This document shows positions 27,765 to 56,263 of a DNA stretch of 64,000 nt, piece by piece. Position 1 is the stretch's first letter, and each line of letters opens with the position of its first letter. The position numbers and the translations under genes were made by a program. The stretch spans positions 202,131-266,130 of the forward strand of contig CALKEU010000001.1 in NCBI GenBank assembly GCA_938084565.1. The letters run 5' to 3'. Source of the DNA: Candidatus Kapaibacterium sp. (GTDB lineage: Bacteria > Bacteroidota > Ignavibacteria > Kapaibacteriales > HRBIN21). The notes beneath the pieces are model-generated. The model was not told the origin of the DNA and made no database searches. It saw nothing but the letters and a program-made list of their open reading frames with translations.

Positions 27765-27772
27765 TAAGTTTG
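27765..27772 (+). promoter_or_regulatory. candidate -7 promoter element TAAGTTTG for dnaN
   Basis: Plus-strand TTAGTTAAGTTTGCATCC about 45 nt upstream of the dnaN ATG, in the 75-nt psd/dnaN divergent region. Confidence 0.35.
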
Positions 27773-27817
27773 CATCCTGCCGTAGGGGTTCTGTCGTTGC
27801 ACCTGAGAGCTATTGCC

Positions 27818-28933
27818 ATGGCATCACAACTCCATGTGTACTGTTCCGTTGCTACACTTCGTGAGGCTCTCTCCCTCCTGCATCCGGTCATCCCCAGCCG
27901 TACCACAACCCCTGCGCTCGAGTGTATTCATATATCGACGCAGTCCGACTCCCTGGAGCTGACGGCTGCAAATGCCGAAATTCGTCTCCGTATCTGCTGT
28001 CCGGCTCGTATTGTGACGGAAGGCTCCGCTCTCGTCCCAGCTAAACTCCTCTGGGACATTGTCCGCCGATTGGATGAGGATGAAGACGTTGCGCTCCTCT
28101 GGCAGGGAACCACCGCTATCCTGGAGACCGCCTATGGGCGATTCCAAATAGCAGGCCTCTCTCCCGAGGAATTCCCGACCGTTTCGGAGCTTCCCGAGCC
28201 CTCTCTCGAGCTTCCTGCTGAGGTCGTCAACAACGTCCTCCATCACGTACGCTTTGCCGCCTCTGAGGAACCTCTCCGCCCTGCCCTGACGGGCATCCTC
28301 TGGGAATTTCGGCCTGAAGCGGTCATTGTCGTTGGGACCGACGGCTACCGCCTGAGCCGCTTCCGCTTCCCAATACCGCTGGACTACCACGGCAGCGTGC
28401 TCATCCCTGCCGACACTCTCGATCTACTCCGCCGGATCACTGACCCGATACGCATCGGGTGGAATACGACACACGTCGTCATTGCCGATAGCCATTTCAC
28501 GCTCTGGAGCCGACTGATCGGCGAGAAATTCCCCGACTACGAGCGGGTTATCCCCACCGAGAGCACCCGGCGCTGTGTGATAAATCGAGAGCGTCTGCTC
28601 AAAGCTCTCGAACGCGTGTCTCTCTTTGCTCCGACCTCTGCTCGCATCGTCCGTCTCCACCTACAGAGCGACACTCTTCAGCTCCAAGCCGAGGATGAGG
28701 CACGCGGCGACCGCGCCCACGAAGCCGTTCCCTGCCAGTACTCTGGGGAGCCCTTGCTGATTGGTTTCAATGCCACATTCTTAACCGAAGCCGTGAAAGC
28801 TGCCCAGAAGGACTCGCTCCTGTTGGAGTTTACCGAGCCTACCCGCCCGGTCGTCATTCGGTGGGCGGACTCGGAAGAGCTGCCGGTGCTGGAATCCCCC
28901 TTGGTGATAGTGGTTATGCCGGTCCGGCTGTAG
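27818..28933 (+). CDS. dnaN: DNA polymerase III beta sliding clamp
   Basis: Three-domain beta-clamp-sized protein (372 aa from MASQLHVY); it sits directly upstream of recF, the conserved dnaN-recF arrangement. Confidence 0.8.
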   Translation: MASQLHVYCSVATLREALSLLHPVIPSRTTTPALECIHISTQSDSLELTAANAEIRLRICCPARIVTEGSALVPAKLLWDIVRRLDEDEDVALLWQGTTAILETAYGRFQIAGLSPEEFPTVSELPEPSLELPAEVVNNVLHHVRFAASEEPLRPALTGILWEFRPEAVIVVGTDGYRLSRFRFPIPLDYHGSVLIPADTLDLLRRITDPIRIGWNTTHVVIADSHFTLWSRLIGEKFPDYERVIPTESTRRCVINRERLLKALERVSLFAPTSARIVRLHLQSDTLQLQAEDEARGDRAHEAVPCQYSGEPLLIGFNATFLTEAVKAAQKDSLLLEFTEPTRPVVIRWADSEELPVLESPLVIVVMPVRL

Positions 28934-28941
28934 CCCTCTGC

Positions 28942-30066
28942 ATGCTCCTTGAGCGGGTGCAGGTCCGGAACGTTCGGCTCTATACGTCCGCAGTCCTACC
29001 GTGCAAACCGGGACTGAACCTGCTGTGGGGACCCAATGGCTCGGGCAAGACCACACTCCTGGAGGCTATTTGCGTAGGAGCCTGGGGCAAAGCCTTCGAC
29101 ACTCCCGATGCCCTCCTGGTACAGCGCGGAGCTCCTCAGTATTGGATTCGGCTGGAGGCCTGCTCCGATGTTGGGGTCCCGTACTGGGTGGAAGTCGAGT
29201 ACAGCCTCGACCACGGTAAGCGGATCCGCTCCTCCCACCGCAGCAGTCTGACGCCTAAGGAACTCATTGGCATACTGCCGGTGGTCTTCCTCGGGCCTGC
29301 GCTGCGAGCTATCACCACCGGCCCTCCACATGAACGACGCCGCTTTCTGGACGTTGTCCTTAGCCAATGCAGTCGCCCCTACCTTGAGACACTTCTCGAA
29401 CACCGGCGGACGCTCCGTCAGCGGAATGCCCTCCTGCAGCACTACCAGGCAGAAGCCCACTTCCTCCCCCAGTGGCAGAGCTGGACTGAGCTGTTCATCG
29501 AGCTCAGTGCGCAGCTTATCTGGCGCCGCTGGCAGTTCATCCGAGAATTTGAACCCCTCATCCAAGAACACTACCGGCGCATTGCCCCTACGGAAAGCCT
29601 CCAGGTCCGCTACGTGCCCGACAGCGTTCCCCCAGAATGCGCTGACCAAGGGCCCGGAGCGATCTCCTCCTGCCTCTCCCGACGCGCTGCAGAACTGGAA
29701 GCTGAAGAGCTGCGCCGCGGAACGACCCTCTTTGGGCCCCAAAAGGACGATGTTCTCTTCCTCCTCAACGGTATGCTGGCCCGGGAGACGGCCTCCCAAG
29801 GGCAACACAAATCGCTCCTCCTCAGCCTCAAACTGGCAGAGCTGCTCTACCTCCGACACCACCATGGCGAAACCCCCATCATGCTTCTCGACGACGTCTT
29901 TGGAGAGCTCGATGAGATACGCGCCCATGCCGCTCTGAGCCTCCTGCAGGCCTACGGCGTTCAAACCTTCATCACCGCCACCGACCCTCTGCATCTGCCT
30001 GCACAACTACACCAGAAGGCCCACTGCATCCGCATAGAAGCCGGCAGCTTGCTGCAAAGCTCTTGA
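28942..30066 (+). CDS. recF: DNA replication and repair protein RecF
   Basis: Walker A LNLLWGPNGSGKTTLLEAI; ABC/SMC-like C-terminus (PIMLLDDVFGELD). I place the start at the ATG MLLERVQVRNVRLY, 9 nt after the dnaN stop. Confidence 0.85.
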   Translation: MLLERVQVRNVRLYTSAVLPCKPGLNLLWGPNGSGKTTLLEAICVGAWGKAFDTPDALLVQRGAPQYWIRLEACSDVGVPYWVEVEYSLDHGKRIRSSHRSSLTPKELIGILPVVFLGPALRAITTGPPHERRRFLDVVLSQCSRPYLETLLEHRRTLRQRNALLQHYQAEAHFLPQWQSWTELFIELSAQLIWRRWQFIREFEPLIQEHYRRIAPTESLQVRYVPDSVPPECADQGPGAISSCLSRRAAELEAEELRRGTTLFGPQKDDVLFLLNGMLARETASQGQHKSLLLSLKLAELLYLRHHHGETPIMLLDDVFGELDEIRAHAALSLLQAYGVQTFITATDPLHLPAQLHQKAHCIRIEAGSLLQSS

Positions 30067-41883: not shown

Positions 41884-42573
41884 TTAGGGCCGCACCCATA
41901 GGAGAGGCCTCCACCGTCCCTCCTCCCAGATGAACCCTACGTATACCCCAGAGGCTCCCCGCTCAGGCACTACGTCCCCAGCCCAGCAGAGCCGTCCCGT
42001 GAGGTCGTAGAGCACAATACGCCGGGCCAATGGGAGCCCTTCTCGACCTTCGGGGACCGATACTGGCCCAAAGCGGTACCAGACCGTGAGAACAAACTCT
42101 TCGAGGAACTCGTTGGTAATGACCCCCTGCTGTTGCTCTCCAAACGGAATCCGCACGAGCGTCCCGGTAATGCGATCACTCACTACGGCCGAGTCAACGT
42201 GCTCGGGCAAGGGGTGGTTCCACTGGAGCACGATTGTGCGTCCTCGCCCGCGTTGGACTACGAAACGGTATGCCACCGCGAAGGTATCCTGTCTCCGCAA
42301 TGGGCGAAAATCTACGTAGCTCCACTTCCACTCACCCTCAATGGAGTCGTAAAAGCGTAAGGCGGCATGGAAGATGTCCTGGGGCGGGTGGAAAGGTGGG
42401 ATTTCCCGCTCACCGAGTGCGGTATCGATCCCGTCGGTAGCTCGCTCATCTACCCCAACCACAAGTCGGATCCGCTCTCCTAATTCGTTCCCGACAGTAA
42501 AAGGGAGTTCGACGCGAAGCTGCGCCGCCGCAGTGCACACAATGCTAAGACTGATCACCGTATGCCGCCACAT
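41884..42573 (-). CDS. small T9SS-CTD secreted protein, paralogue of an internal module of the 1027-aa neighbour
   Basis: Signal peptide MWRHTVISLSIVCTAAAQ. It shares the motif VGVDERATDGIDTALGE with GLGIRATDGVDTLFGE in the 1027-aa protein. The C-terminus GVYVGFIWEEGRWRPLLWVRP is CTD-like. Confidence 0.55.
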   Translation of the reverse strand: MWRHTVISLSIVCTAAAQLRVELPFTVGNELGERIRLVVGVDERATDGIDTALGEREIPPFHPPQDIFHAALRFYDSIEGEWKWSYVDFRPLRRQDTFAVAYRFVVQRGRGRTIVLQWNHPLPEHVDSAVVSDRITGTLVRIPFGEQQQGVITNEFLEEFVLTVWYRFGPVSVPEGREGLPLARRIVLYDLTGRLCWAGDVVPERGASGVYVGFIWEEGRWRPLLWVRP

Positions 42574-42658
42574 TCCACCCACAGGTTGCCCACGGACAAC
42601 AAAACTGGGTGGTAGCCCTAGCGGACCACCACCCAGCACGTGAAGGCTTCAGCGTGTT

Positions 42659-45600
42659 TTAGCGGACCACTGAAACGGGCACCACAGTTCTTCGCTCGCC
42701 CGCTGCTGCCCGCAACAGATACCGTCCGCTCGACAGAGCTTCTACTGGGAGCAAGAATGTGTGCGAACCAGCGGCGAGCTCACCCTCGTACACTCGCATC
42801 ACCTCTTCACCCATCAGGTTGTAAAGTGTGAGCACAACCGGGGCTGCCTCTGGTACAACGAGTGTGACCGTTGCGCGCTCGAGCACCGGCTGCGGCCTCA
42901 CTTCAACCCGAAATTCAGTGCCTGCAGGAACACTCAGCAGCTGGACTGCCGTTACATTTGGATCTGTGATCTGCACCTGGTTCTGCCCACTGAGCGTTCC
43001 CCACACACGTCCGGAGGCATCAACAACGGTATACTCCGTTGCGCCACTCCCTAGGTGCAGAGTCACGGGGTACTGCACACCCTGGAATCGGATCACCGGC
43101 GAGGCGGCATCCTCCACGTAGGTCCCACTCCCGAAACGGACATCGAAGATTCCCTGTGGAGGCAGCGGTGGCAACTCGAACCGCTCCCGATCGATCGGCT
43201 GCTGACTGAGGTAGAGAATCGCCTCCCTCCCAGCCGCATCGCGCACGGCCACTGGGGCACTCTGCTGCACCACGTACTCCCGGTACTCGTCCCGATAGGC
43301 CGTCGCACGCGGCGTGCCAGGAGCCTCCAGCTTGAGGTAGCCCCTGCCCCGAATCTTGATCCAATACCCTAAGCCGGGGGTCAACTCTGAGACTTCCATG
43401 AAACCACGATCCGGCTCGTATTTGTACACACCCCCGACCCGCTGTGGTAGTGGCTCAGCACCATAGTTCTCGAACTGAATCCGCTCAATGCTTACAGGAA
43501 CCGATAGCCCACCGATAGTATTCCACCCATCGTAGAGCAGCACATTGTCGTTCCGGTCTATCCGAAGCAGACGAACACCCGCAATCTGGCGATCCACGGA
43601 ATCGCTATACTTGACGTAGTAGCCGTAGCCCACCTGGAGGTTTTCCGAGGCCTGATACTGGTTCTGCGAGAACCAGAAGGGGATATTGATAGCCCGCGGA
43701 TAGACCATCCGCCAGTGAGGATTCGCCGGCCGCACTGGCAGCGAGAGCAAGTTCCACCCTTTTCGGATGACAGGATACTGGACGACGAGCGGATACGTGT
43801 ACTCGATGACAAACGAGCGGATCCGGGCATCCGTGATCGTATAGGACATCCGCGTACCCCCTGCCGGGGTTGCCTGCCGCATATCGACACCAAAGATCAA
43901 GCCGTTGAGTGTATCTCGCAAGAAGAGGCGCGCCCCTGCTGGAAAATCTGTCGTATCCCACGTCAGTACCACGGGGTAATTCGGAGCCCCACCGGCATCG
44001 AAGCGGCACAGAAAGACCACGGTTGAATCGGAAAACACATTGCGAATGTCACGCGAAGCATAGATCCCTACCAAGTCCCGCAATCCATACGGCGCAGTAC
44101 CTGGCGGGACATTGGCTACCCCGTCGAGATACCAGCGCGCATAGAAGCTCCCCGCCACTGGCGGATTATCATACACCGTCTCTCCAAAGAGAGTGTCGAC
44201 TCCGTCTGTTGCGCGAATCCCCAACCCAAAGACCAGTGTTGCTGACTGTGGAATTGCAGCCGAGTTGCTCACCGTGATCCGGATTCCCCGGCCCAGGACC
44301 GCTAGATTACGGGGATCATTGTTCGGCTCCACAGGGTTCCGCACGTAGATAAATGTTACCCGCAAGCGCACCGGTGATACCGACGCAGAGAGGCTGCGGA
44401 ATGTAATGTAGCCAACGTAAATACCTGCCGCATCTATGTTCTGGGGCAACTCCTGCGGATCACAGAGAATTCGGAAATTCTGAGGACGTGACGGGGATTG
44501 TGGGTTGTTTTGGATGTCTTGGAGAATGGTCTCACCGAGCGTCCGATCGATGTAATCAATCACTCCCCGGCGTGTGATAGTCGGGATGGGGTTTCGGTCG
44601 CCGGGGCCAGCAGCAAAGGTCTGAAACTTAAGCCACCGTGCGTTAGACTCCACCACGATATCCGTCAATCGCGTACCCTCCACCTCGTTAGTTACCACTA
44701 ATTCCCGCCGTCCGAAGAAGACCCCTCGCGTCCACGAAGCCGAATCCAACACAATGGGATGAATGACTTCCCACTCATCGCCAGAGAGAGAAACTTGTCG
44801 AACAACTGCGTCAACCCCTATCCGTGGTTCAAAGCCCATCTGCGGAACACTCGTGACAAGGACGTAGATCATGCCCGGCATACTCGGATAGAGATTGGCA
44901 ATTGGCAGCAGACCGCGATTGTCAACCCCCTCTAATCCCTCATACGACACATTCCCGGAAGCCCCACCGGTACGATATGTTACAAAGTCCCGATACCGTG
45001 ATCCCACTGAATTAGCTGGGAAGGGTTCCGCAGGAAAAACGCTCAGGTTGAGATCGTTGTACTTCAGCGTGTCGTTGGAGAGTATCAACCGTGCAACCGA
45101 ACCCTCAGGCCCCGTTACCCGGAACCGTAAGTACACAACCGGAACATACTGCCGGTTATCACACTGAATAGTTGGATCCCACGGATCCTGTCCCAGTCCA
45201 GCAGGGCTCGGAGGCAGTGGTTTTGCAGAGCTAGCAACAATGCGGATTCGACGGGGATCGAAGACTGGGGGAACGCTCCCCAGGTTGTGCCATGCAACGA
45301 GTGCTCCTAACATATCCTGAGATGTGATCGCAACATCATCGAAGGCAAACGTGAAATCCTTTGCTAAAACGCTATCACCCGCTGGACTGACCTTTTGGAG
45401 CCCCAGAAACTCCAAGAAGCGCCCATCGTACTTGAGTTTGAATTCGAAACTGTAGATCGGCCACACCTGTCCCCACACAGGGTGGGTTGTAGGAACCCAA
45501 CAGTTTCGGATGTAGACTGGAACCAACAACTCCCGTGGCTGCCGTGGATCTGCTTGTTGAGGTACCACGATAAAGCCCGCAGGATAGACTTGCGCATCGT

Positions 45601-45742
45601 ACCCTGGGCCGCTGCCTGTCAAACTAAGCACCGGCAGTTTCACGTCGACCGTCTGTCCCCACAGCAGGGGGCTTCCGGCGAGGATAATACCTACAGCCAC
45701 TGTCCACAGAGATACCCACTGTCGCATTGCCTCTCTCCTCAC
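42659..45742 (-). CDS. large T9SS-secreted protein with N-terminal cohesin-like module
   Basis: Signal peptide, then a cohesin-like beta-sandwich pattern (LLVPVYIRN...IYSFEFKLKYDGRFLEFLGLQKVSPAGDSV). The C-terminus VLTLYNLMGEEVMRVYEGELAAGSHTFLLPVEALSSGRYLLRAAAGERRTVVPVSVVR is a T9SS CTD. Confidence 0.6.
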   Translation of the reverse strand: MRREAMRQWVSLWTVAVGIILAGSPLLWGQTVDVKLPVLSLTGSGPGYDAQVYPAGFIVVPQQADPRQPRELLVPVYIRNCWVPTTHPVWGQVWPIYSFEFKLKYDGRFLEFLGLQKVSPAGDSVLAKDFTFAFDDVAITSQDMLGALVAWHNLGSVPPVFDPRRIRIVASSAKPLPPSPAGLGQDPWDPTIQCDNRQYVPVVYLRFRVTGPEGSVARLILSNDTLKYNDLNLSVFPAEPFPANSVGSRYRDFVTYRTGGASGNVSYEGLEGVDNRGLLPIANLYPSMPGMIYVLVTSVPQMGFEPRIGVDAVVRQVSLSGDEWEVIHPIVLDSASWTRGVFFGRRELVVTNEVEGTRLTDIVVESNARWLKFQTFAAGPGDRNPIPTITRRGVIDYIDRTLGETILQDIQNNPQSPSRPQNFRILCDPQELPQNIDAAGIYVGYITFRSLSASVSPVRLRVTFIYVRNPVEPNNDPRNLAVLGRGIRITVSNSAAIPQSATLVFGLGIRATDGVDTLFGETVYDNPPVAGSFYARWYLDGVANVPPGTAPYGLRDLVGIYASRDIRNVFSDSTVVFLCRFDAGGAPNYPVVLTWDTTDFPAGARLFLRDTLNGLIFGVDMRQATPAGGTRMSYTITDARIRSFVIEYTYPLVVQYPVIRKGWNLLSLPVRPANPHWRMVYPRAINIPFWFSQNQYQASENLQVGYGYYVKYSDSVDRQIAGVRLLRIDRNDNVLLYDGWNTIGGLSVPVSIERIQFENYGAEPLPQRVGGVYKYEPDRGFMEVSELTPGLGYWIKIRGRGYLKLEAPGTPRATAYRDEYREYVVQQSAPVAVRDAAGREAILYLSQQPIDRERFELPPLPPQGIFDVRFGSGTYVEDAASPVIRFQGVQYPVTLHLGSGATEYTVVDASGRVWGTLSGQNQVQITDPNVTAVQLLSVPAGTEFRVEVRPQPVLERATVTLVVPEAAPVVLTLYNLMGEEVMRVYEGELAAGSHTFLLPVEALSSGRYLLRAAAGERRTVVPVSVVR

Positions 45743-45761
45743 GGAGCAAATTCAACAGACT

Positions 45762-46901
45762 TCATTCCACAATGAAGGCCACGGGGAGCTGTGCTCCCCC
45801 GATTCGTTGCCATCGTCCAACGTATATACCTGTAGGTAGCCCTTGAAGGGACACCTCGAACGGCTTCCCTTCGGCATGTACAGATCGCAGGAGCCTACCT
45901 AGGACATCGTAGAGCTCCAGCCGTTCGCCCGGCTCTAGGTACAACAGGCCAGAAGGATACACCATCACCCTCTGGCAACGCTCGCTGACGGCTGAAGGCT
46001 GCGATGGCGCAGCCATCACTACCAAACTATCTCCTATCCAACGAGTAAGGCAAGCACACGGATCCAGGGGATAAGACAGAAGACGAAGGGTGACCGTATC
46101 CGCCCACTGTATGCGGGCAGACAATTCCACGATAAGCTCGGACCTCTCCCGCTGGGAAGTCCATTTTATGCTCAGTGTGTCGCCACTGCGCTCCCACGTT
46201 TGCAACTCAACACCTTCGCCTACAGCAATATTCTCTACCTGTAGCCACGACGGCAGACCCGTTATGACTGTTGCCACCGAACGGAGTTCCAGAGCTGGAG
46301 GACAGCCCACTTGCACTACCCACAAACACGAGGTATCCGTCCCCACTAGGTTGCACTCCCGCGTCAGACTTTGCGTCCACAGAGTACGGTCAGGCGTGTC
46401 AACGATACGGGCATAGACGATTACAGGCGTTGTATCAACCTGCACCACCCGCCTCCGTTCGAACTCTTCGTTGAATTCCACATACTTCAGTTGAATGACA
46501 GCCGTATCAGGACACTCCCGACGATAATCTCCAAGGAAGGCCACCAACGGCTTCGCCCCAGAGATTCGTCGTGTGAGCGTGAATGCATATGCCCGAATCT
46601 CGCCATACAGCGCACTAAAGGCTCGCTGTTCCATTCCTTCTGCCAACGTACCGCTGACTAGCATCGTATGGAAGGCAAACTTCTCTGGATTGTACTGTAT
46701 GGCAAGATTGAAGCCCATCAAGCTGTCCGTTGGCTGTACTGGACTGATCTCAACGATCAAGATACACTCGCGTCTCCCGCACACATCTACCGTATCCCAG
46801 ACCCGCAGGGCAAGCCGTGCTGTCGTCTGGGCTATGAGCTGCCCCATGCCGCACAGAGCCATCACTATCCATGATGGTAAGCATGCCCTGCAGGACATCA
46901 T
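45762..46901 (-). CDS. T9SS-secreted protein with N-terminal cohesin-like module
   Basis: ALRVWDTVDVCGRRECILIVEISPVQPTDSLMGFNLAIQYNPEKFAF follows the cohesin pattern V.V.....G..V.V.I....V.....G..F.L...YDP..L. The C-terminal CTD is LELYDVLGRLLRSVHAEGKPFEVSLQGLPTGIYVGRW. Confidence 0.6.
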   Translation of the reverse strand: MMSCRACLPSWIVMALCGMGQLIAQTTARLALRVWDTVDVCGRRECILIVEISPVQPTDSLMGFNLAIQYNPEKFAFHTMLVSGTLAEGMEQRAFSALYGEIRAYAFTLTRRISGAKPLVAFLGDYRRECPDTAVIQLKYVEFNEEFERRRVVQVDTTPVIVYARIVDTPDRTLWTQSLTRECNLVGTDTSCLWVVQVGCPPALELRSVATVITGLPSWLQVENIAVGEGVELQTWERSGDTLSIKWTSQRERSELIVELSARIQWADTVTLRLLSYPLDPCACLTRWIGDSLVVMAAPSQPSAVSERCQRVMVYPSGLLYLEPGERLELYDVLGRLLRSVHAEGKPFEVSLQGLPTGIYVGRWQRIGGAQLPVAFIVE

Positions 46902-46907
46902 ACCCCA

Positions 46908-48788
46908 TTAACGCAGCACCACGATTGGTTCGAGCTCTCGGATACCTGTTGGACCTTCAATCCGGCACATATACATGCCCGGGCTGACCCGCTCGCCGAG
47001 CCCGTTCGTCCCATCCCACTCTACCTCGTAGGAACCGCTCGAATACTCCGCATCAGCAAGTGTCCGTACATAGCGGCCCATGGCGTCATAGAGGAGCACC
47101 CGATATCGCCCCGCCTCCGGTACATGGAGTCGGATGGCTGTCCGATCAATAACGGGGTTGGGGGCAACATGGCCTACCGTCGTCGGAGCTGCTGTGACAG
47201 CCAGCGGCACTACGAGCTCAGGCAGCTCTTCGTCATTCAAGCGGACATTGCTTACCCGCAGCTGAGCATCTTCTACGCGCAGCGTCACATACAGTATCGG
47301 CTCCCCCGCCTCACACTCTATCACACCCGCAATCGCCATACGCCCAGCGTCGTAGGCAACCGTCAGCCTGTCTGCAAAGCGCGGTGCAATCTCAACTCCA
47401 CTGATGACCCCATTGAATTGTACTCGAATACCCAGTGCTCCTGCCCAGGCTCCGTTGAGGGCGATGGGGAAGCGATATACTCCAGGAGCACTACTGTGCG
47501 GTTGCGCAATGTGGAGATTCGAGGCAATACCTGCAGCTGCTGCCCCCCGACCGTATGGTGGGAGTACTGTCAAATCCAGCAGCCACGGCAGATACGGCAC
47601 ACGGCCCGCCATGTAGAGCATGATGATGGCTGCATCATACTCCGTAGCCTCGAAAAAGAGAATAGGATCACCTCCAACATAGGGGAGCGAGTTATCCTGT
47701 GGGAGGTCCTGCCAGTAGTAGAGCGATCGTGTCGGTATAGCGCGTCGATGGTAGGCTGTATCAGCTGTATTGTTCCAGTTGCGTGTAGAGTAGTAGTAGC
47801 GCCCGTTGTGGTTGACGTCTCCATGGTATGCCTGGCGCCCTTTGAGGCTATCGAGACGCCGATCTGTTGCTACAGAGCGCAGGATGAGCATTACATCGTT
47901 CACTGTCACAAACCGGTCTTGTCCCATCCCGGTGTGCTTTCCCACTTGGGAGAAGTCTACATCTCCGTCGCCCCACCCTTCCAGGAAGAGCCGAGGGATG
48001 GCATTGAAGCGAATAACTGTATCACTTCCCCCCGAAGGTTGCCATGTGCTACTCAATACCGTAGAGGTAAGTGCCTGATTGACATCGCCAGTGAAGACCA
48101 AGCCATTCAGATAGTCACCAAATCCCCCCTTGATACCAATCGCTGCACCCTGTACCTGAACTGGTCCCCCCGAGGCCGTCAAACCGTAAGCAAACTCAAT
48201 ATCACCCTGGAAATTCCCCGGCCGCGAAGATTCATACAGCCACACTTGGAAACTGGCGATACTGGATGGCAACGACGGGTTGTTAATGTTCAAATCCCTC
48301 CACTCCACCACGAACGCCCGATTCGGGGCTGATCCCACCACTTTGTACGAGATCCGCGAAGGAACGTACCCCGGTTGAGTCGTCCGATAGTAATGGTCAC
48401 CCCAGAAGGGGGCAATGACGTTGAAAGGTTCAGAATTGACGAAGAGCCGCCCCGGAATATTCCCGCCCGTTAACGGAGGAGTCTCCCCGGTACGTAGCAA
48501 CAAGACGAATCCATTGACAGAGATTGCTAGTCTGCTGTACCGATAGCCCTGATACTCGAAGAGGAAAGGGAGTGCCACAATGGCGTAGCCGTCATTGTGA
48601 TCAGGGTTCCCGGTTGCTGGATCTACGAACTGGTCCGCATCCAGCACCGTTGCTCCCGCCAGCAAGGTAAAGGGTTTTCCTCCGACTTTGACAGCAGGCT
48701 GGAACTCGGCATAAACCTGGGATCTTGCGGCAATTGCACCGCTGAGCAGTAACGCCACAACACCCCCGATCAGCGTCAGCATTCTCAT
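46908..48788 (-). CDS. T9SS-secreted protein with dockerin-like Ca-binding loop motifs
   Basis: Signal peptide MRMLTLIGGVVALLLSGAIAARSQ (ATG at 48786-48788 preceded by GAGGAGA). It has two dockerin-like segments, GDGDVDFSQVG...VTVNDVMLILRSVA and GDVNHNGRYYYS...TADTAYHRRAI. The C-terminal CTD is YRVLLYDAMGRYVRTL...GMYMCRIEGPTGIRELEPIVVLR. Confidence 0.6.
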   Translation of the reverse strand: MRMLTLIGGVVALLLSGAIAARSQVYAEFQPAVKVGGKPFTLLAGATVLDADQFVDPATGNPDHNDGYAIVALPFLFEYQGYRYSRLAISVNGFVLLLRTGETPPLTGGNIPGRLFVNSEPFNVIAPFWGDHYYRTTQPGYVPSRISYKVVGSAPNRAFVVEWRDLNINNPSLPSSIASFQVWLYESSRPGNFQGDIEFAYGLTASGGPVQVQGAAIGIKGGFGDYLNGLVFTGDVNQALTSTVLSSTWQPSGGSDTVIRFNAIPRLFLEGWGDGDVDFSQVGKHTGMGQDRFVTVNDVMLILRSVATDRRLDSLKGRQAYHGDVNHNGRYYYSTRNWNNTADTAYHRRAIPTRSLYYWQDLPQDNSLPYVGGDPILFFEATEYDAAIIMLYMAGRVPYLPWLLDLTVLPPYGRGAAAAGIASNLHIAQPHSSAPGVYRFPIALNGAWAGALGIRVQFNGVISGVEIAPRFADRLTVAYDAGRMAIAGVIECEAGEPILYVTLRVEDAQLRVSNVRLNDEELPELVVPLAVTAAPTTVGHVAPNPVIDRTAIRLHVPEAGRYRVLLYDAMGRYVRTLADAEYSSGSYEVEWDGTNGLGERVSPGMYMCRIEGPTGIRELEPIVVLR

Positions 48789-48881: not shown

Positions 48882-51800
48882 TTACCGCACTAGGACCATT
48901 GGCTGGACGAGCACCACGTCGCCAGCAGTGATCCGGTAGTAGTACACACCACTGGGGACTTCTACACCGTTAGCGCTTCTTCCGTTCCACGGTACAATGT
49001 ACTCGTTAGCCGGGTAGAAGCCCTCCAGCAGCGTAGCAACCTGCGTACCGAGAGCATCGTACACTTCGAGCCGTATAGTAGCTGGCTCCGTCAGGCGGAA
49101 GCGAATCTGAGTTGTCTGCTCAAATGGATTAGGAGTATTTCCGAGCAGCTGCACTGGACCAGCCGCAGCAGCCACCGGCTCGGGCACATCGCTAATGAAG
49201 TCATACACGATCACAAAGTTCGTGACGGCGTCGGTGTAAATGACAACCGAAAGCGAGTCGCCATTCCGCTCTAGGGTCACTGTGGGCACCGAACGTCCTT
49301 CACCCGTGCGCATATTGAAGCTAAAGATGTTCCCGTTGGAGGCGCCGTCACGGATATACCACGTCGACCCAGCAGGGTTACGCGCGGCATCGTTCCGGTC
49401 AGGAACATCTTGAGCACTCCACGTGATGCGCACAGGATACGCATCAGAGGCATTGCCGGTGACACTTCCCGCCTGGAAGCGCCCTTTGTAGATCGATTGC
49501 CCTTCAACACCAGCAACCGCCCGCGGAAAGATATTCCGCACCGTTCCATTCGTAGAAGCAATACTCCACCGAGCGTCGAAGACGTCGTTGGGTGGGATCG
49601 GCGGCAGCTCGTACTCGCAGTAGTTGGAATCCAACTTCCCGACGCCACCACGGTTCGGATCATCACCGGTGGTTGCCAGCGGCGCTGTTCCCCATTCGAG
49701 TACCTGGAAGGCCCCGAAGCGATTGCTAATCCGCATTGGGACAATGAAGTCTGTCGGATCGGACACGTTCAGCTTGTAGGAGATCTCGTGTTGTGCTCCC
49801 TGCCGATCCACGACTCGAACGCGGACGGTAACCTTGCCATCGGGCCCTGGGGTGGCATTCAGAGCTGCCGTGCTAATCAAAACCTTGACTGTATCGGAGG
49901 ACTGGGGACCGCTAATTGTAGCCGGGCTAACCTGGAAGCCCGCAGGCTCGACCACCTCGATTGTCAGCTGCTCGAGGGCATCCGGCGGCTCCCGACGCAG
50001 GAGATCACGGTCGATCACCAGAATGCTATCCACATAGGGTTTCCCAAGCTCAACACATCTTACTGCCGGCAGCTGTGCCAGCCGTGGCGGATGGTTTACT
50101 GCCCGCACATTGAGGTCGAGCACCTTCACGTGTGTCAGTCCGTACTCGTCCGTAACCAGAACGGTTACCTTCTCTCGACGCGGCGCATCGTAGACCCCTG
50201 GAGTGCCAAAGAGAAGCCCGCTGACCGGATCGATCTGGAGCCACCGCGGGGTGGTCTTCTTGTCGCGCAGATCCCACGCACCCGCCTCGGGGAAGCATGG
50301 ATCGCGTGGGACAAAATCACGTGGATCGCCGGGATAAATCAGCTCAAATTGATGTGCCTGCCCAAAGTTCGGATCGTACACGACTATGCGACGACTCGAA
50401 TCCAGCAGCGTCGGATTGTAGTCCTGGTCCTCTATGGCATCCGGCAGCGTAGAGGTGAGGATGGTGGGAGCTACGTTGACGAGAACTCGCCGCGTTAGAT
50501 AGTTGACTCCACCATGGCCATCATTCACTACGATGGAGACAACCGTGTCGGTGTTGAGTGCCCCATGGTGTTGCATTGGGGGTGTCAGCAGTTGCCATGC
50601 AGTGGCAGAATCAATCCTCACATTGAGCTGCCCACGGAGGCTGAAGTCGATCGCTAATGGATCGGGCTGCCCACTGTTATCGTAGCGCCGTAGGTACTGG
50701 TTGCTCATCCACACCGGACGTACCTGCGTTGCAGGCTCAACGACTGTATCTGGCGGCACATCCCGCAGACTAATCGAGGCAAAGCCATAGGTTGTGCGCC
50801 CATAGCGGAAGTCCCATCCACGAGCACCAGCGTCAGCATCTTCGAGCTCGTCATCGGTATCGATGTCAACTTTAAAGCGGAGGCTATCAGTCAAGTTCGC
50901 AAGCCAAACACCGTTTCGTTCGCAGGCTACGTTGAAGCCTGTAAACTGCGGCGTACTGTCGATGACGAAGATCCGGAACTGGTACGTCACCGTCGTCGCC
51001 CCCGTGTTACCATAGTCCACGGTATCCTGCTGCAAGAACCGAGCATTGCTGCCGTCGTACGCTTGCGCATTGAAGTACGGCGGATAGAGGTAGATGTACT
51101 TTGCGATGACCTCCTCACTCAGCCCAGCAGCCTTCAGGGAGTCAACGGTTCGGGCGCTGGGCGGGAAGTTGCGGACAGCCACCGTGACGATTTCTCCACC
51201 GGGAACCACAAACGGGTTTGTCGGTCGGCCCTTGAGCACAACGTAGCCTCGCGCTCCATAGTACGGACCAAACGTTGCCGGGAGCGTATCGGCCTGGAGC
51301 CAGTAGGAAAGCCCCGAACCAGGTGCAACACTCCAGAAGTACGCAAGCTGCGGATACCGATCGGGGAACATGACCGACCGCGGGTCATAGAAGAGGTTCG
51401 GGTCTACCGCAGTAATGGTAAAGATGGAATCCCGCCCTGGCCCCGTCGGCTGACGCGGATAGCTTACATCCTCAGTCAGGAAGATCATATTCCGCAACTC
51501 CGGTGGCGTGATATTCTCCAACGCCACCTTGTTCCCCGTGAACACTGGCGGGTCAACTGTTGCTCCTACCTCAAAGATGAGTGCTCCATTGATTGCATCC
51601 GCAACCGTCCCCTGCCACAGAACTGTACGGGAAACAACGGCAACGACATCACCGACTCGTACCGGAAGCGCATTGTACCGTTCGCCGGCAAATACTGTAA
51701 CCTTCTGAGGGCTAATTGCCCCATCGGTGGGGAGAATACGATTGACATACCCAAAGCCGGGGCCCCCCAACTCATTGACAAAGCCCTCATATTTCCGCCC

Positions 51801-54800
51801 TTGCAAAGCCGCTAGATCCTCAATGTCCGGCCGCCTCTGGAGTGCAGCAAGAATTGCTCCCAAGTTCGTCCCAATGTTGGCCAGCCCCTCGATCGTGCGC
51901 CGATCGGTCGGGCGGCGGTTTACAGAATCGGGAACTAGCTCGACACGTGCACGGAAGACCTCGTTCGTTGCTCCTATCTGGCGCAGATTGACCCGGATGT
52001 AGTCACCCGTGCTGGTATTGATGACAAAGAAGACCGTCTCGTTGATCGCTCGCGGGTCATTGTTATTGAGCTCTGCTGACCCTGTGTAATTAGCACGGGC
52101 TTCAAGGAAGAGCGGATAGCCGATCGGATGTTTCGTGCCGCGGAATTCTGTCTGCAGGGCAGCAATGTTCGGGTCAGCCTCTGCATCGAAGGGATTCCGG
52201 GTCCACCGCCGGACGTACTTCCCGAAGGAAGGCAGCGTGGGATCATTATATGTCCGCAGGGTTTTGGGAATACCGACGGCGAAGTCCTCGATTGGCGACA
52301 TCCGCCGGTTGGAGTAGTCCGCCGTCTTGATATCGGTCCCTTTGTCGAAGATATCGTAGATGTGCCCCTGCATCAGCAACCGCTCAGGGATACTCGCTGG
52401 GTCAGGTGTATTCTCATCCCCTGCGTTCAAAACCGGGATCGGGATATAGGTGTAAAGGTGTCGCGACTCAAAGGGGCCCTGATTCTTCCCCGTACCTCCA
52501 CGCACGAAGCCAAGCTGTCGCGTGCCGTCCCCAGCGACAAAGAAGGTCTCCTGCGTACGCCCACTGACAGGCAAAATCGTCACCACGTTGGCTTCGGTCC
52601 GTCCCCAGTAATTGCCCCGGAGCGTATCGATCCCACCCATGCCAACGCCAGTCCCTGCTCGGCCTCCCTTCGTATCGGGATAGTCCGGCAGGCGGATGAG
52701 AAACCGCGCCGCGTTATCGTAGATAGAGTTTGCAGCCCAGTGATAGCTTGCGTACGGCAGCGGTCCCACTACGTCACCATATAGAATTGCCCCCGCCAGG
52801 TCACTCGAGGCGAGATTTGTCCCCTGCACCAATGGCCCTGTAATGGCATTCTGCTGGGCGCCTATGTCAGAGGTCGCCGTGTTGTTCGTAATCAGGCTTC
52901 GCGTAAAGACCAACTGCAGATTGTAATTGTCCGAGTAGATTGCCGCACCGGTATAGGCACGGTTACCCTGAATGCGCACTCGGTTGAAGAAGACAGAATC
53001 TGTCCGCCCTGCACGGCTAATACTCACCTCGTCGAGCACGTAAATAGCTCCACCGAGCCCTGTGCCGTTCTCCCGCAAGGTTGTCCCCGGGTGCTGACGC
53101 CGAATGTCTCCAATCTGCGTCGTCCCCGATCCCATCTGCGCCATGTTCGGGATAGCTTCATTGTCAAAGAAGCGAGTCAGCATCCGCACATCCGCCACCG
53201 GTGCTCCGGGCGTCCACGTAAAGATGTCATCTCGAGAGCTAAACCCAACAGCCACCCCGTTCGGGAGAACAGTGATGTTATCGACATCAGTCAAGAAGAA
53301 CCGATGCGAGGACGTCTGAGGATGCACGATACAGACGGCACCACCGTTGCCATTATAGGCCTTATTAGCCCTGAACTCAACTCCTTTGACGACATTGAGA
53401 TCAGCGTTGAGCGTGTAAACGGCCCCACCACCACGCACCTGCGCCTCGTAGCCTTGCTGAACCTGTCCAACGATGTTATTAGTAAATACCGCTCGCACGA
53501 GCCATATATACCGTTGCTCGACGGGCAAACAATTGGGCGGCGGGCAAGGCAGCTGAGCTGCGATAGCACCACCCGAAAAGCCAGCCTCATTGTTGTCAAA
53601 CTCCACCGGATAGTTCCCTCCGTAGAGGGACAGAGGCCCTACCGTACCACCAGCCCCATAGACGGTGAAGTTCTTCCCCGAGAAGATCGCCCCACCGTGC
53701 TCGACAGCACGGTTATTGCGGAACTTGATGTTGTAGCCATAGTTACGCGTGTCAATGAGGGCATCCGAACCACCGATGACGGGCGACGGTCGCGTATCCA
53801 CACCTGCAGCCGCGACATAGATAGCTCCTCCACGCCCCGCTTGGTTATCCACGAAGTACGTCTCCTGGCGTGCCTCGCCTCCCTGGCGTCCGCGCACCTG
53901 GAGCCGACCGGCATTGGTGCCCACATAAATTGCCCCACCATGGGACAGCGCACCAATCTGGGTCGGATCGGTGAAGAAGGGAACCTCAGCCCTATTGCTG
54001 ACGAAGCGTCCACGGACTGTCACCGAGGTCGCCCCACCAACGTAGAGTGCCCCACCGCGTGCCCCTCCAGTATTCGGGTTGTTTTGGAGATTCCTTGCGC
54101 TGTTGCCGTCGAAGAAGACGTAATCATACACGTTCGGAGCCTCGTAGTCGTTTATCCCCAACCCAATCTCTAGCGGGGTTCGCCCAGCGATGTAGACCGC
54201 TCCACCGTAAGCTTGATTCTTCCAGCTCTGAGGCTCTAGAGGAGCAGGGTTATTGAGGTCATCGACGATCGCCCACACACCTGGGGCAATCTGCCGTAGT
54301 TCAACGCTCGAAAGCAGTACGCGGTTCCCCGTAAAGCTCAAATACCGCACCCGCCCCAACAGCACTGCTAGACGAGCATCATCGTAAGCCTGACGATCGC
54401 TGTTGGTCAACGGTTCTGAAGCAGCACTGTAGACTTGATCGATGGCCTTGACTGCTTGGGATATCGGAACCGCGGTTGCATTGTCCGTTAGGTACGGATT
54501 GATAGGGCCGTAATCCGGCAAGGCTGAAATACCCGGTGTCGGGTAAACTCCCGTTCCGACAGGCGCCTGGAGTAACTGGAGCGCCCCTCCCCGGTATCGC
54601 GCCATGTTATTCCGGAACTCGCACAGCAGGAGCCATGTACGCGAGGAGAAGCTCGTGATGACCCCACCGCTGCCGTTAGTCTGCTGGATGAGCTGTGCAT
54701 TCAGGGCGGCAATAGCACCAGTGTTGGGTTGATAGATCGGGAAACGGTCCACCGTCGTATCCTTCCGGAAGTTCTCGAAGACTACGTTCCGGAAGAAGGC

Positions 54801-55466
54801 CGCCCGTGCTCCCGGCAGGATGATGATGTGCCCCCATTCTCGGGAAAAGTTGTTGACCGGACGCCCTCGGAAGGTAATTACACCCTGCGTCACATTGATG
54901 TTCCCGCCCCCCGCACGCCGCCACGGTGTTTGGTTGATATTCGGGTCAGAACCCGCAAAGGCCAGGCGCGCCGCGGCGTACATAATAGCCTTGCCCGGTG
55001 GCAGGTTCTGCAACCGCGGATCTGATCCGAGGTCCACCAAGAATATCTCTCCATACTTGCTTGGGTCAATCGTCGGATCCCCGACAATGGTACTTACAGC
55101 AGCAGCGCTGAAGTAGTTGAGGTCAGCATAGCCTGTGTAACCACATGGGTTGTTGGGATCCACCGGGTTGCAGCCACCAGGGAATTGGTTATAGGTTGCC
55201 GAGACGTATCCATCGGCGATGATGCGGCCGCCTACGGAGTCTATGAGGCGTCCGTTAGGCAGGAACTCCACAATGGTCCCGGGCTCAATGATGAGCGTCC
55301 CGGCAATCATGTATGTCCCGCTGATGCGGTATAGCGTATCCTTCAGGAAAATCCGGACCTCATTTGGGCCCAGACGCCCACTGACTTCCACAACGGGCAG
55401 CTGCGCACGGCTTACACCTGCAGCCAGGATCCCCACAAGAGCGACAAGGTGCAACCACCGCTTCAT
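48882..55466 (-). CDS. giant (about 2190-aa mature) T9SS-secreted parallel beta-helix protein with Pmp-type (GGAI / FxxN) repeats and cadherin/Ig-like domains
   Basis: Signal peptide MKRWLHLVALVGILAAGVSRAQ (ATG at 55464-55466, 4 nt after GGAGGAA). It has many GGA[IVL]Y/F..N repeats (HGGAIYVGTNAG, RGGAIYVAAAG, EHGGAIFSGKNF, FSGGAIAAQ, GLGGAIYVLDE). The C-terminal CTD is IRLEVYDALGTQVATLLEGFYPANEYIVPWNGRSANGVEVPSGVYYYRITAGDVVLVQPMVLVR. Confidence 0.7.
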   Translation of the reverse strand: MKRWLHLVALVGILAAGVSRAQLPVVEVSGRLGPNEVRIFLKDTLYRISGTYMIAGTLIIEPGTIVEFLPNGRLIDSVGGRIIADGYVSATYNQFPGGCNPVDPNNPCGYTGYADLNYFSAAAVSTIVGDPTIDPSKYGEIFLVDLGSDPRLQNLPPGKAIMYAAARLAFAGSDPNINQTPWRRAGGGNINVTQGVITFRGRPVNNFSREWGHIIILPGARAAFFRNVVFENFRKDTTVDRFPIYQPNTGAIAALNAQLIQQTNGSGGVITSFSSRTWLLLCEFRNNMARYRGGALQLLQAPVGTGVYPTPGISALPDYGPINPYLTDNATAVPISQAVKAIDQVYSAASEPLTNSDRQAYDDARLAVLLGRVRYLSFTGNRVLLSSVELRQIAPGVWAIVDDLNNPAPLEPQSWKNQAYGGAVYIAGRTPLEIGLGINDYEAPNVYDYVFFDGNSARNLQNNPNTGGARGGALYVGGATSVTVRGRFVSNRAEVPFFTDPTQIGALSHGGAIYVGTNAGRLQVRGRQGGEARQETYFVDNQAGRGGAIYVAAAGVDTRPSPVIGGSDALIDTRNYGYNIKFRNNRAVEHGGAIFSGKNFTVYGAGGTVGPLSLYGGNYPVEFDNNEAGFSGGAIAAQLPCPPPNCLPVEQRYIWLVRAVFTNNIVGQVQQGYEAQVRGGGAVYTLNADLNVVKGVEFRANKAYNGNGGAVCIVHPQTSSHRFFLTDVDNITVLPNGVAVGFSSRDDIFTWTPGAPVADVRMLTRFFDNEAIPNMAQMGSGTTQIGDIRRQHPGTTLRENGTGLGGAIYVLDEVSISRAGRTDSVFFNRVRIQGNRAYTGAAIYSDNYNLQLVFTRSLITNNTATSDIGAQQNAITGPLVQGTNLASSDLAGAILYGDVVGPLPYASYHWAANSIYDNAARFLIRLPDYPDTKGGRAGTGVGMGGIDTLRGNYWGRTEANVVTILPVSGRTQETFFVAGDGTRQLGFVRGGTGKNQGPFESRHLYTYIPIPVLNAGDENTPDPASIPERLLMQGHIYDIFDKGTDIKTADYSNRRMSPIEDFAVGIPKTLRTYNDPTLPSFGKYVRRWTRNPFDAEADPNIAALQTEFRGTKHPIGYPLFLEARANYTGSAELNNNDPRAINETVFFVINTSTGDYIRVNLRQIGATNEVFRARVELVPDSVNRRPTDRRTIEGLANIGTNLGAILAALQRRPDIEDLAALQGRKYEGFVNELGGPGFGYVNRILPTDGAISPQKVTVFAGERYNALPVRVGDVVAVVSRTVLWQGTVADAINGALIFEVGATVDPPVFTGNKVALENITPPELRNMIFLTEDVSYPRQPTGPGRDSIFTITAVDPNLFYDPRSVMFPDRYPQLAYFWSVAPGSGLSYWLQADTLPATFGPYYGARGYVVLKGRPTNPFVVPGGEIVTVAVRNFPPSARTVDSLKAAGLSEEVIAKYIYLYPPYFNAQAYDGSNARFLQQDTVDYGNTGATTVTYQFRIFVIDSTPQFTGFNVACERNGVWLANLTDSLRFKVDIDTDDELEDADAGARGWDFRYGRTTYGFASISLRDVPPDTVVEPATQVRPVWMSNQYLRRYDNSGQPDPLAIDFSLRGQLNVRIDSATAWQLLTPPMQHHGALNTDTVVSIVVNDGHGGVNYLTRRVLVNVAPTILTSTLPDAIEDQDYNPTLLDSSRRIVVYDPNFGQAHQFELIYPGDPRDFVPRDPCFPEAGAWDLRDKKTTPRWLQIDPVSGLLFGTPGVYDAPRREKVTVLVTDEYGLTHVKVLDLNVRAVNHPPRLAQLPAVRCVELGKPYVDSILVIDRDLLRREPPDALEQLTIEVVEPAGFQVSPATISGPQSSDTVKVLISTAALNATPGPDGKVTVRVRVVDRQGAQHEISYKLNVSDPTDFIVPMRISNRFGAFQVLEWGTAPLATTGDDPNRGGVGKLDSNYCEYELPPIPPNDVFDARWSIASTNGTVRNIFPRAVAGVEGQSIYKGRFQAGSVTGNASDAYPVRITWSAQDVPDRNDAARNPAGSTWYIRDGASNGNIFSFNMRTGEGRSVPTVTLERNGDSLSVVIYTDAVTNFVIVYDFISDVPEPVAAAAGPVQLLGNTPNPFEQTTQIRFRLTEPATIRLEVYDALGTQVATLLEGFYPANEYIVPWNGRSANGVEVPSGVYYYRITAGDVVLVQPMVLVR

Positions 55467-55537
55467 GATTCCTCCACCACCTAGAGACCACTTGTCAGAA
55501 GAGTGCATGAGTTCACCACAGCTTGGACGAACATATA

Positions 55538-56263
55538 CTATTCAACGGCTGTGCCAAGGCGAGCAAGGCCTGCTTTAGCCTCACCCGCAAAGTCCGAGAA
55601 TTCATTCTCCTGCAGCAGCTGGCGATATAGCTGCACTGCTTTCTGTGTATTCCCCGCCCGTTCGTAGCAATATGCCGCAAAGAAGCGATACCGCTCTGCT
55701 ATCCCGAGCGGAGCGCCAATAGTGGCAGCCCGCTCGTAGAGCTGGGCGGCTTCCGCCAACTTTCCTTCCTCTTCGGTGCACGCTGCCAATCCCGCATAGG
55801 CGCCAACGAGCACAAGAGGAGCCTTCGCTGTGGCTGCGCGTTCGAAGTACGGACGGGCCTTCGCGATCTCTCCCTGAAGCAGATACGCACTCCCAGCATA
55901 GAAGGCTGCTACTCGGCCTGCTTCCGTGCTGCCGTATTCCTGTACAATCTCTACCAGCCCACGGACTGGCTCATCGCGGATGGTCTTGGCTGTATCACCG
56001 TACAGAGCCCGCTCGTAGTCCCCATTATCGTAGTAGGTAACAACCCGTGCCAGCAGCGTGGCAGCTGTCTCGGCACGCTGCTTCTGGAGGATGTTCCAGT
56101 AGAGGACGCCTCCAATGGCCAGAAGGAGCACAACTGCGGCACCGATTACCTCACGTAGATGCGCTTGCAGCCACAGCTGAAACCGTTCGGCAAGCTTGGG
56201 TTGGAGCTCTATGCTGGCTTGCTGTTGCTCTTGCTCTGTTGTACGCACGGCTTCCTGGTCCAT
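55538..56263 (-). CDS. membrane-anchored TPR protein (YfgM-like)
   Basis: Cytoplasmic N-terminus, a single TM (VIGAAVVLLLAIGGVLYW), then periplasmic TPR-like helices. Confidence 0.55.
   Translation of the reverse strand: MDQEAVRTTEQEQQQASIELQPKLAERFQLWLQAHLREVIGAAVVLLLAIGGVLYWNILQKQRAETAATLLARVVTYYDNGDYERALYGDTAKTIRDEPVRGLVEIVQEYGSTEAGRVAAFYAGSAYLLQGEIAKARPYFERAATAKAPLVLVGAYAGLAACTEEEGKLAEAAQLYERAATIGAPLGIAERYRFFAAYCYERAGNTQKAVQLYRQLLQENEFSDFAGEAKAGLARLGTAVE

Follow-up and report, generated by a model that had tools for sequence, protein, structure and literature searches.

The largest gene in the window (the 64-kb stretch of DNA analyzed here) encodes BIG, which is a fairly ordinary kind of giant bacterial surface protein composed of a beta-helix rod, an Ig-like stalk and a T9SS tag; its family is uncharacterized, of a known kind. 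The new observation is that BIG heads a five-gene secreted set conserved across Kapabacteria. It is probably exported by Sec and translocated to the surface by T9SS, as one component of a conserved surface structure built or decorated by five cargos.

The gene and the domains of its product

All of the features described here are located on the minus strand. The gene is real and occupies positions 48882..55466 (2194 aa, stop codon included), based on the ORF, a Shine-Dalgarno-like sequence and homolog alignment. The first ATG of the ORF results in a version of 2208 aa (48882..55508), the length claimed in a first-pass annotation; this conflicts with the end coordinate given there, as 48882-55466 encodes 2194 aa. 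The Shine-Dalgarno-like sequence GGAGGAA, correctly noted in the same annotation, is found at 55469..55475, 2 nt upstream of the ATG at 55466. The closest homologs are 2193-2199 aa long and do not use the upstream in-frame ATG. Since this Shine-Dalgarno sequence precedes the ATG at 55466 and homologs align from that Met, the 2194-aa protein is likely to be the product. As claimed, BIG is the largest ORF of the window (the next one is 1057 aa), and the peptide strings quoted in the annotation were all present in its translation. The protein begins MKRWLHLVALVGILAAGVSRAQ, and residues 1-22 (55401..55466) were recognized, by inspection only, as the Sec signal peptide expected of a T9SS type A cargo; in the AF2 model a helix of low pLDDT (residues 2-20) is followed by a folded domain.

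Residues ~25-955 (52602..55394) were modelled as the proposed parallel beta-helix, which is right-handed, with three sheets of stacked coils (pectin-lyase-like fold). The model is confident to residue ~900, and a conserved GNYWG motif is located at ~950. The stretch bearing PMP repeats was placed at residues ~284-815 (53022..54617), with 10 GGA[ILVF] and 8 FxxNxA motifs, the repeats being confined to residues ~285-815. Both repeat profiles exceeded their cut-offs, Chlam_PMP (PF02415) with 54.2 bits (cut-off 20.6) and TIGR01376 with 36.8 bits (cut-off 15). Based on 10 GGA[ILVF] motifs against 0.5 expected (a number attained in 0 of 2000 shuffles) and 15 FxxN motifs against 5.8 expected, the repeats are far above chance; FxxN sits 8-10 residues upstream of six of the GGA motifs. 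The Pmp-type repeats first described are therefore present, but number about ten rather than dozens. Their GGA count ranges from 7 to 12 across 120 homologs.

The most conserved part of the protein is a family-specific central region (residues ~956-1690; 50397..52601), in which several alpha/beta and beta-sandwich domains were predicted by AF2 from residue ~1070. The conservation profile gave identities of 57-70% across residues 900-1200; residues ~929-1071 are strongly conserved, yet have a pLDDT below 50 in the AF2 model. Sequence searches of the central region against Pfam, NCBIfam and the PDB gave no match. A phmmer search with residues 900-1650 against 1.84 billion representatives revealed no relatives outside the BIG family: 74 of the 75 clusters were full-length or fragmentary members, and the 75th, an insect repeat protein, was rejected as a spurious low-complexity match. 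Two cadherin/He_PIG-type Ig-like domains with an invariant NDGHGG motif (residues ~1691-1905; 49752..50396) and a pre-CTD beta-sandwich module with the motif YCEYELPPIPPNDVFDARW (residues ~1906-2100; 49167..49751) come next. The cadherin/Ig-like segments claimed to follow the repeats were borne out, in that the C-terminal half is made up of consecutive domains of beta-sandwich and cadherin-like type. The AF2 model of this half (pLDDT 83.8) matched multi-domain cadherin/Ig arrays and T9SS CTDs, with an uncertain inter-domain geometry (pTM 0.50). Its fold search returned mostly generic Ig/cadherin arrays, from which the central domains could be assigned no specific function.

Conservation of the family and of a five-cargo block

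Homology searches revealed 346 homologs of 2000-2700 aa, ~45-55% identical over their full length; they come from MAGs of Kapabacteria, Ignavibacteria and Chlorobi and are annotated as T9SS type A sorting proteins. Relatives were found in 208 species-level genomes. The best 80 each came from a different assembly, with 40-55% identity over the full length, and judged from these 80 of the 208 genomes BIG is apparently single-copy. Identity per 50-residue window was 36-70%, even along the protein, and conservation was only ~10-15 points below that of neighbouring housekeeping enzymes. The MAGs which carry BIG come from hot-spring, wastewater, lake and marine habitats. Several of them are labelled Hyphomicrobiales, Chloroflexota or Desulfobulbaceae, and given such labels BIG is a handy phylogenetic marker.

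The ORFs of the window lie on one strand in the order TPR-BIG-p641-p379-p1027-p251. Essentially all loci of sufficient length preserve this order, among them the complete genome CP054181.1 and the most distant member tested (39% identity); individual members are found in 59-81 of the 84 loci, depending on contig span. The gene directly upstream of BIG in 75 of the 84 loci encodes a YfgM-like protein of 241 aa (55538..56263) combining a single TM helix at the N-terminus with a TPR domain (PF09976 TPR_21, 29.9 bits, cut-off 25.5). Downstream, p641 (46908..48788; 626 aa from its ATG; syntenic in 81/84 loci) carries an N-terminal NIDO-like domain and a T9SS CTD (FlgD_ig 30.9, TIGR04183 21.2 bits); among 21 orthologs, NIDO (PF06119) was found in 5 (best E 1.9e-6) and Por_Secre_tail in 18. 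The p379 gene (45762..46901; 67/84 loci) likewise encodes a T9SS CTD, its family profile matching the CTDs of F. johnsoniae RemZ and RemA and 8glk (E 4e-5). The product of p1027 (42659..45727; 1022 aa from its ATG; 73/84 loci) has an internal copy of the pre-CTD module and a T9SS CTD (TIGR04183 24.1 bits, cut-off 23; Por_Secre_tail in 19/21 orthologs), while that of p251 (41884..42573; 229 aa from its ATG; 59/84 loci) consists of the module and a CTD, with Por_Secre_tail in the CP054181.1 ortholog. CTDs are thus encoded by all four partners. Using hhalign, the BIG module was aligned to residues ~475-643 of p1027 (probability 97.4%, E 1.4e-11), and the p251 family to the BIG module plus CTD (probability 98.6%, E 9e-16); as judged from this alignment, p251 is a free-standing paralog of the C-terminal ~290 residues of BIG.

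BIG had been described as the first gene of a cargo operon. Among the cargos it does come first in a run of closely spaced genes on one strand, but synteny extends to the YfgM-like TPR gene upstream, and the transcription unit may therefore begin one gene earlier. A scan for promoters and terminators was no better than shuffled expectation (10 against 7.7 and 15 against 11.3). A ~3-fold enrichment of the O-glycosylation sequon D[ST][AILVMT] (z 3.4-9.5) was seen in BIG, p379, p1027 and p251 as well as in six homologs, but not in the cytoplasmic proteins of the window. Dockerin-like GDVD/GDVN motifs in p641 and cohesin-like N-termini in p379 and p1027 were noticed by eye only; this idea was dropped after the family profiles, searched against all PDB sequences, matched CTDs and no cohesin or dockerin.

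A catalytic beta-helix (polysaccharide lyase, epimerase or glycoside hydrolase) would make BIG a cell-attached, T9SS-secreted enzyme in which the Ig-like domains act as spacers or binding modules. Polysaccharide epimerases and lyases indeed scored as well as adhesins in the fold search of the helix, but so did the non-enzymatic helices of Vag8 and PfbA. No CAZyme, Beta_helix, NosD or Pectate_lyase Pfam family was found in BIG at E<=1, these families are absent from the records of the 120 homologs listed, and no enzyme Pfam domain occurs among the latter. A class-wide, single-copy, fixed five-cargo block across varied habitats would also be unusual for a substrate-specific degradative enzyme, and we regard an enzymatic role as unlikely.

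The sorting domain and the route of export

The claimed T9SS CTD was identified at residues ~2105-2194 (48885..49154) and is of type A. TIGR04183 (27.1 bits, cut-off 23) and FlgD_ig (29.9 bits, cut-off 27) both exceeded their cut-offs in BIG; Por_Secre_tail (PF18962) reached only 15 bits, below its cut-off, and is recorded in most homologs. In both AF2 and the fold search the protein ends in an Ig-like beta-sandwich of seven strands, and the whole-family profile matched only FlgD-like and PorU CTDs among all PDB sequences. The properties of type A CTDs have been described, with S-layer (TfsA/TfsB) and adhesin cargos as precedents (PMC10202324). No T9SS core genes were found within the window, the remainder of which contained housekeeping genes only when scanned for this machinery. 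Because CTD proteins are reported to correlate with T9SS genes (PMC10202324), the core machinery is presumed to be encoded in the source genome.

BIG could be moved along the surface by the T9SS/gliding motor as an adhesin like SprB or RemA, with its partners as accessory proteins. Its giant size as a T9SS cargo, its filament-like architecture, the use of a type A CTD by RemA also (PMC10202324) and the above match of the p379 profile to RemA and RemZ are consistent with this. The likeness to Rem proteins is limited to the CTD, however, and the type B CTD (PF13585/TIGR04131) of SprB was not detected in BIG, where CHU_C scored 21.1 bits (cut-off 27). In addition, no PorP/SprF-like family is recorded for the neighbouring genes, and our literature search found no report of gliding in Kapabacteria, which leaves a gliding adhesin slightly more doubtful still than an enzyme. 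An overlooked barrel, which would make BIG a chlamydial-type Pmp autotransporter (type V secretion), is refuted in spite of the PMP scores and of a helix resembling the autotransporter passenger Vag8, as the C-terminal 90 residues form the seven-strand CTD sandwich rather than a 12-strand barrel, homologs throughout the family retain the CTD, neither an autotransporter barrel (PF03797) nor a Pmp middle domain (PF07548) was found in BIG at E<=1, and the latter is also absent among the 120 homologs listed.

PMP repeats had been described as normally occurring on autotransporters, which was not supported. A synthetic PMP consensus gave 1181 matches, and the best 120 of these, all <=277 aa and many of them fragments, had neither an autotransporter Pfam domain nor barrel, nor a T9SS CTD. 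As far as these matches tell, the survey shows that the repeat is widespread outside autotransporters; it is silent on how frequently PMP repeats and a CTD occur together. Chlam_PMP has also been recorded in archaeal surface proteins by published surveys. Public annotation lists the BIG family under two names, "T9SS type A sorting domain-containing protein" and "predicted outer membrane repeat protein". As PMP repeats occur outside autotransporters and public annotation already presents the family as T9SS type A, their combination is unsurprising. It changes little by itself, the PMP repeat being a generic beta-helix unit. The same passenger architecture had been claimed for BIG and chlamydial Pmps; only the short repeat is common to both, a further ~1200 residues being unrelated to Pmps, and a Pmp passenger rerouted from T5SS to T9SS is a weak reading. 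Literature searches on PMP with T9SS, and on Kapabacteria with T9SS or gliding, yielded no paper on the BIG family.

The proposed surface structure and known systems

T9SS exports large adhesins and surface-layer proteins. Most likely, based on its domains and gene context, BIG is a glycosylated, surface-anchored fibril or adhesin in a conserved surface assembly. Its signal peptide would carry it to the periplasm, where T9SS would recognize the C-terminal type A CTD (PorV/SprA route); a PorU-type sortase would then take off the CTD and the new C-terminus would be joined to an outer-membrane glycolipid. About eight beta-sandwich and cadherin-like domains would form the membrane-proximal stalk and the ~900-residue PMP-repeat beta-helix the distal rod, with an overall length roughly estimated at a few tens of nanometres. 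The five cargos would build or decorate a single conserved structure (an adhesive fibril or a coat, probably O-glycosylated), and would be neither a variable adhesin nor a secreted enzyme.

More tentatively, the five co-linear cargos may build one lineage-defining Kapabacteria surface organelle, which would be a glycosylated fibril or coat; the YfgM-like TPR protein may serve it as a dedicated periplasmic chaperone, and the shared pre-CTD module would be its assembly or anchoring interface. If so, a conserved surface structure of several proteins, dependent on T9SS, would exist beyond the well-studied Bacteroidia and Flavobacteriia, and its folds would have no detectable relatives elsewhere. 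The fixed five-cargo block, found once per genome in the best 80 matches, appears to mark an undescribed core envelope structure of the uncultured Kapabacteria class, and offers metaproteomics, cryo-ET and CTD-reporter assays a concrete target.

Like chlamydial Pmps (type Va), BIG has a Sec signal peptide and GGA(I/L/V)/FxxN repeats (PF02415, TIGR01376) forming a parallel beta-helix, which would be distal, with anchoring at the C-terminus. It differs in lacking the barrel and the Pmp middle domain, in its predicted export by a T9SS CTD, and in having only ~10 repeats in a ~900-residue helix, followed by ~1200 family-specific and Ig-like residues. Flavobacterium johnsoniae SprB and RemA are likewise very large T9SS-exported surface filaments, RemA with a type A and SprB with a type B CTD; in contrast to them, BIG lacks a lectin domain and a PorP/SprF-like gene next to its own, and no similarity was found beyond the CTD. 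The S-layer glycoproteins TfsA/TfsB of Tannerella forsythia (PMC10202324) and the surface-layer cargos of P. gingivalis resemble the BIG block in that neighbouring genes encode type A CTD proteins. Anchoring at the surface once the CTD is removed is predicted here as well, and the O-glycosylation sequon is enriched in the BIG block. Five cargos are present rather than two, and BIG, a beta-helix with an Ig stalk from the Kapabacteria lineage, shows no detected similarity to TfsA/TfsB outside the CTD. The overall design is that of fibrillar adhesins, with an adhesive head or distal beta-helix, an Ig-like stalk and an anchor end. Unlike in these, the stalk of BIG consists mostly of domains which differ from one another and are specific to the family, instead of tandem copies, and the protein is orthologous and apparently single-copy across the class, with a repeat number which is not variable.

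The giant gene, its product and predicted fold

The gene for the giant protein, a predicted cargo of type IX secretion (T9SS), lies on the minus strand in an open reading frame (48882..55508) of 2208 codons counted from the first ATG; as the first-pass annotation had stated, no larger ORF is found in the window. That annotation placed a 2208-aa product at 48882-55466; the coordinates stand and correspond to the second ATG, whereas the length belongs to the longer ORF. Based on the GGAGGAA at 55475-55469 preceding the second ATG, the length of the closest homologs (2193-2199 aa) and a family consensus beginning at the second-ATG methionine, the product is likely 2194 aa, with the N-terminus MKRWLHLVALVGILAAGVSRAQ. 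The peptides quoted earlier were all found in the ORF translation.

The protein was modelled with AlphaFold2 in two overlapping halves, using a 41-sequence family alignment. For residues 1-1150 (pTM 0.80; pLDDT mostly >90 between residues 23 and ~900) the predicted pattern is one of short regular strands, as in a beta-helix. The model of residues 1050-2194 (mean pLDDT 83.8, pTM 0.50) indicates well-folded domains whose relative placement is uncertain. Residues ~1691-1905 comprise two He_PIG/cadherin-type domains and residues ~1906-2100 a beta-sandwich with the motif YCEYELPPIPPNDVFDARW. Seven strands were modelled in the final ~90 residues, an arrangement which is the published fold of the type A T9SS C-terminal sorting domain, or CTD (PMC10202324). 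TIGR04183 scored 27.1 against a cut-off of 23 and FlgD_ig was also above cut-off, while Pfam Por_Secre_tail was weak on the protein itself, yet recorded for most homologs. No autotransporter or Pmp-middle family was matched at E<=1. The domain inventory of the first-pass annotation was right and withstood the refuting conditions which that annotation had set: a beta-helix is predicted, a CTD profile is matched and no translocator barrel was found.

Residues ~956-1690 gave no Pfam, NCBIfam or PDB-sequence match. When 1.84 billion cluster representatives were searched by phmmer with residues 900-1650, only 75 clusters were returned, 74 of them full-length or fragmentary members of the same family and one a spurious insect repeat protein. 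Conservation is highest at residues 800-1200 (57-70% identity in 50-residue windows). Residues ~929-1071 (window ~52254-52682), at 57-69% identity, rank with the best-conserved stretches of the family despite a pLDDT <50; they may serve as an interaction surface, or may fold only with a partner. A subset of orthologs, 2650-2730 aa long, carries a beta-helix insertion of ~300 residues after the position of residue 786 in the giant protein. The insertion matches the BNR/Ycf48/sortilin-type propeller Pfams PF14870 and PF15902, and some orthologs are mis-named 'YCF48-related protein' as a result.

PMP repeats and distribution of the family

Repeats of the chlamydial polymorphic membrane protein (Pmp) type were recognized by Pfam Chlam_PMP (54.2 bits, cut-off 20.6) and TIGR01376 (36.8 bits, cut-off 15). 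The motif GGA[ILVF] occurs 10 times where 0.5 is expected, a count reached by none of 2000 shuffles, and FxxN 15 times (5.8 expected). At six of the GGA motifs FxxN is located 8-10 residues before GGA, and neighbouring GGA motifs are mostly 36-50 residues apart; in 120 homologs the count is 7-12 per protein. The PMP repeats are real, in about ten copies restricted to residues ~285-815, and not the "dozens" originally reported. A search with a synthetic PMP consensus gave 1181 matches, and none of the best 120, all short proteins, had an autotransporter domain. The repeat, which according to the literature is also present in archaeal surface proteins, is widespread among proteins without such domains.

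Relatives of the giant protein at E<=1e-5 numbered 346. The best 120 of these are 2120-2734 aa long, and share 44-55% identity outside the closest species cluster. Those that bear a name are called either 'T9SS type A sorting domain-containing protein' or else 'predicted outer membrane repeat protein' and come from Kapabacteria, Ignavibacteria or Chlorobi MAGs. When one genome per GTDB species was scanned, relatives were identified in 208 genomes, each of the best 80 coming from a separate assembly. At 89% identity, the hot-spring 'Bacterium HR21' is the closest species. At six loci, among others, the operon occurs with full synteny in MAGs labelled 'uncultured Hyphomicrobiales', 'Chloroflexota', 'Desulfobulbaceae' or 'Chloroherpeton'; a Kapabacteria-type operon in such MAGs suggests that the labels are wrong or the contigs mis-binned.

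The conserved gene block and its predicted cargos

Synteny was investigated by tblastn of the neighbouring proteins of the window against 84 loci. The genes for a TPR protein (241 aa), the giant protein and four partners of ~640, ~380, ~1030 and ~250 aa (p641, p379, p1027 and p251; window 41884-48788, minus strand) follow one another on one strand, and this order is kept almost everywhere the contig reaches far enough, with partner identities of 20-44%. It is kept in the complete genome CP054181.1 and, up to the contig end, in the most distant member examined (39% identity). Housekeeping genes, namely gatB and those for a class IV aminotransferase and an E1 dehydrogenase, are often located upstream, which speaks for a stable core region and against an island. 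Intergenic gaps in the window measure 6-93 nt, the exact size varying with the start codons chosen. A hairpin (42604-42637, minus strand) with a 15-bp stem containing 9 G-C pairs, followed by TTTGTTGT, separates the stop of p1027 (42659) from the probable start of p251 (42573); it could be an attenuator or terminator internal to the cargo gene run, or an RNA-processing site. The rest of the 64-kb window contains no T9SS machinery and carries housekeeping genes (speA, malQ, aspartate kinase, lnt, amidase, psd). At 27770-30066, dnaN and a recF-like gene are on the plus strand, whereas nearly all other window genes are on the minus strand.

The TPR protein (55538-56263, minus strand) has one N-terminal membrane helix and a TPR_21 (YfgM family) match above cut-off. 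In 75 of the 84 loci its gene directly precedes the giant gene; the protein may act as a dedicated chaperone in the periplasm or simply be a conserved neighbour.

All four partners are predicted T9SS cargos. In p641 (46908-48788, minus strand) FlgD_ig scored 30.9 bits, and Por_Secre_tail was found in 18 of 21 orthologs. An N-terminal nidogen-like NIDO domain (PF06119, residues ~60-200) was found in five of the 21 (best E 1.9e-6) and was not detectable in the window copy; VNGFVTF and APFWGDHYYR are conserved motifs in this region. With the p379 family profile, matches were obtained to the CTDs of RemZ and RemA from F. johnsoniae, p1027 matches TIGR04183 (24.1 bits; Por_Secre_tail in 19 of 21 orthologs), and the p251 C-terminus aligns with the p641 and p379 CTDs. 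Over its whole length p251 is paralogous to the C-terminal ~290 residues of the giant protein (hhalign probability 98.6%, E 9e-16) and to an internal p1027 domain (97.4%, E 1.4e-11).

The sequon D[ST][AILVMT] marks O-glycosylation across Bacteroidota. Compared with shuffles, it was enriched about three-fold (z 3.4-9.5 overall) in the giant protein (18 observed, 6.3 expected, z 5.0), p379 (7, 0.8, z 6.9), p1027 (8, 2.3, z 3.8), p251 (3, 0.3, z 4.8) and six homologs of the giant protein (z 3.4-9.5), and was not enriched in seven cytoplasmic window proteins (z -1.1 to 0.7). Kapabacteria may use it for the same modification.

A putative surface fibril and its comparison with Pmps

The most economical reading is that the giant protein would be exported by the T9SS and anchored C-terminally as a surface fibril, with the beta-sandwich domains as a stalk close to the membrane and the PMP-repeat beta-helix as a distal rod, within a conserved five-cargo surface assembly. 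A catalytic beta-helix is compatible with the fold alone and appears unlikely; given the even, enzyme-like conservation, the single copy and the fixed partners, a fast-evolving 'polymorphic' adhesin is disfavoured and so, to a lesser degree, is a secreted enzyme with a specific substrate. A gliding adhesin is slightly less probable again, since similarity ends at the CTD, which is not of type B, and no PorP/SprF is present among the neighbours. The reading as a true Pmp autotransporter is refuted, as the C-terminal fold contradicts it. The conserved five-cargo block with its common module is the part which deserves follow-up.

The first-pass annotation had regarded the protein as a type V secretion passenger rerouted to the T9SS. 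This framing is unwarranted, because the giant protein and the chlamydial Pmps have a short repeat in common and nothing else, that repeat extends to archaea and to proteins lacking autotransporter domains, and in public annotation pipelines the family already goes under T9SS cargo names. The pairing of PMP repeat and T9SS CTD is accordingly not itself novel; the family is uncharacterised and lineage-restricted, and falls into a known class of proteins, the large surface proteins of the T9SS.
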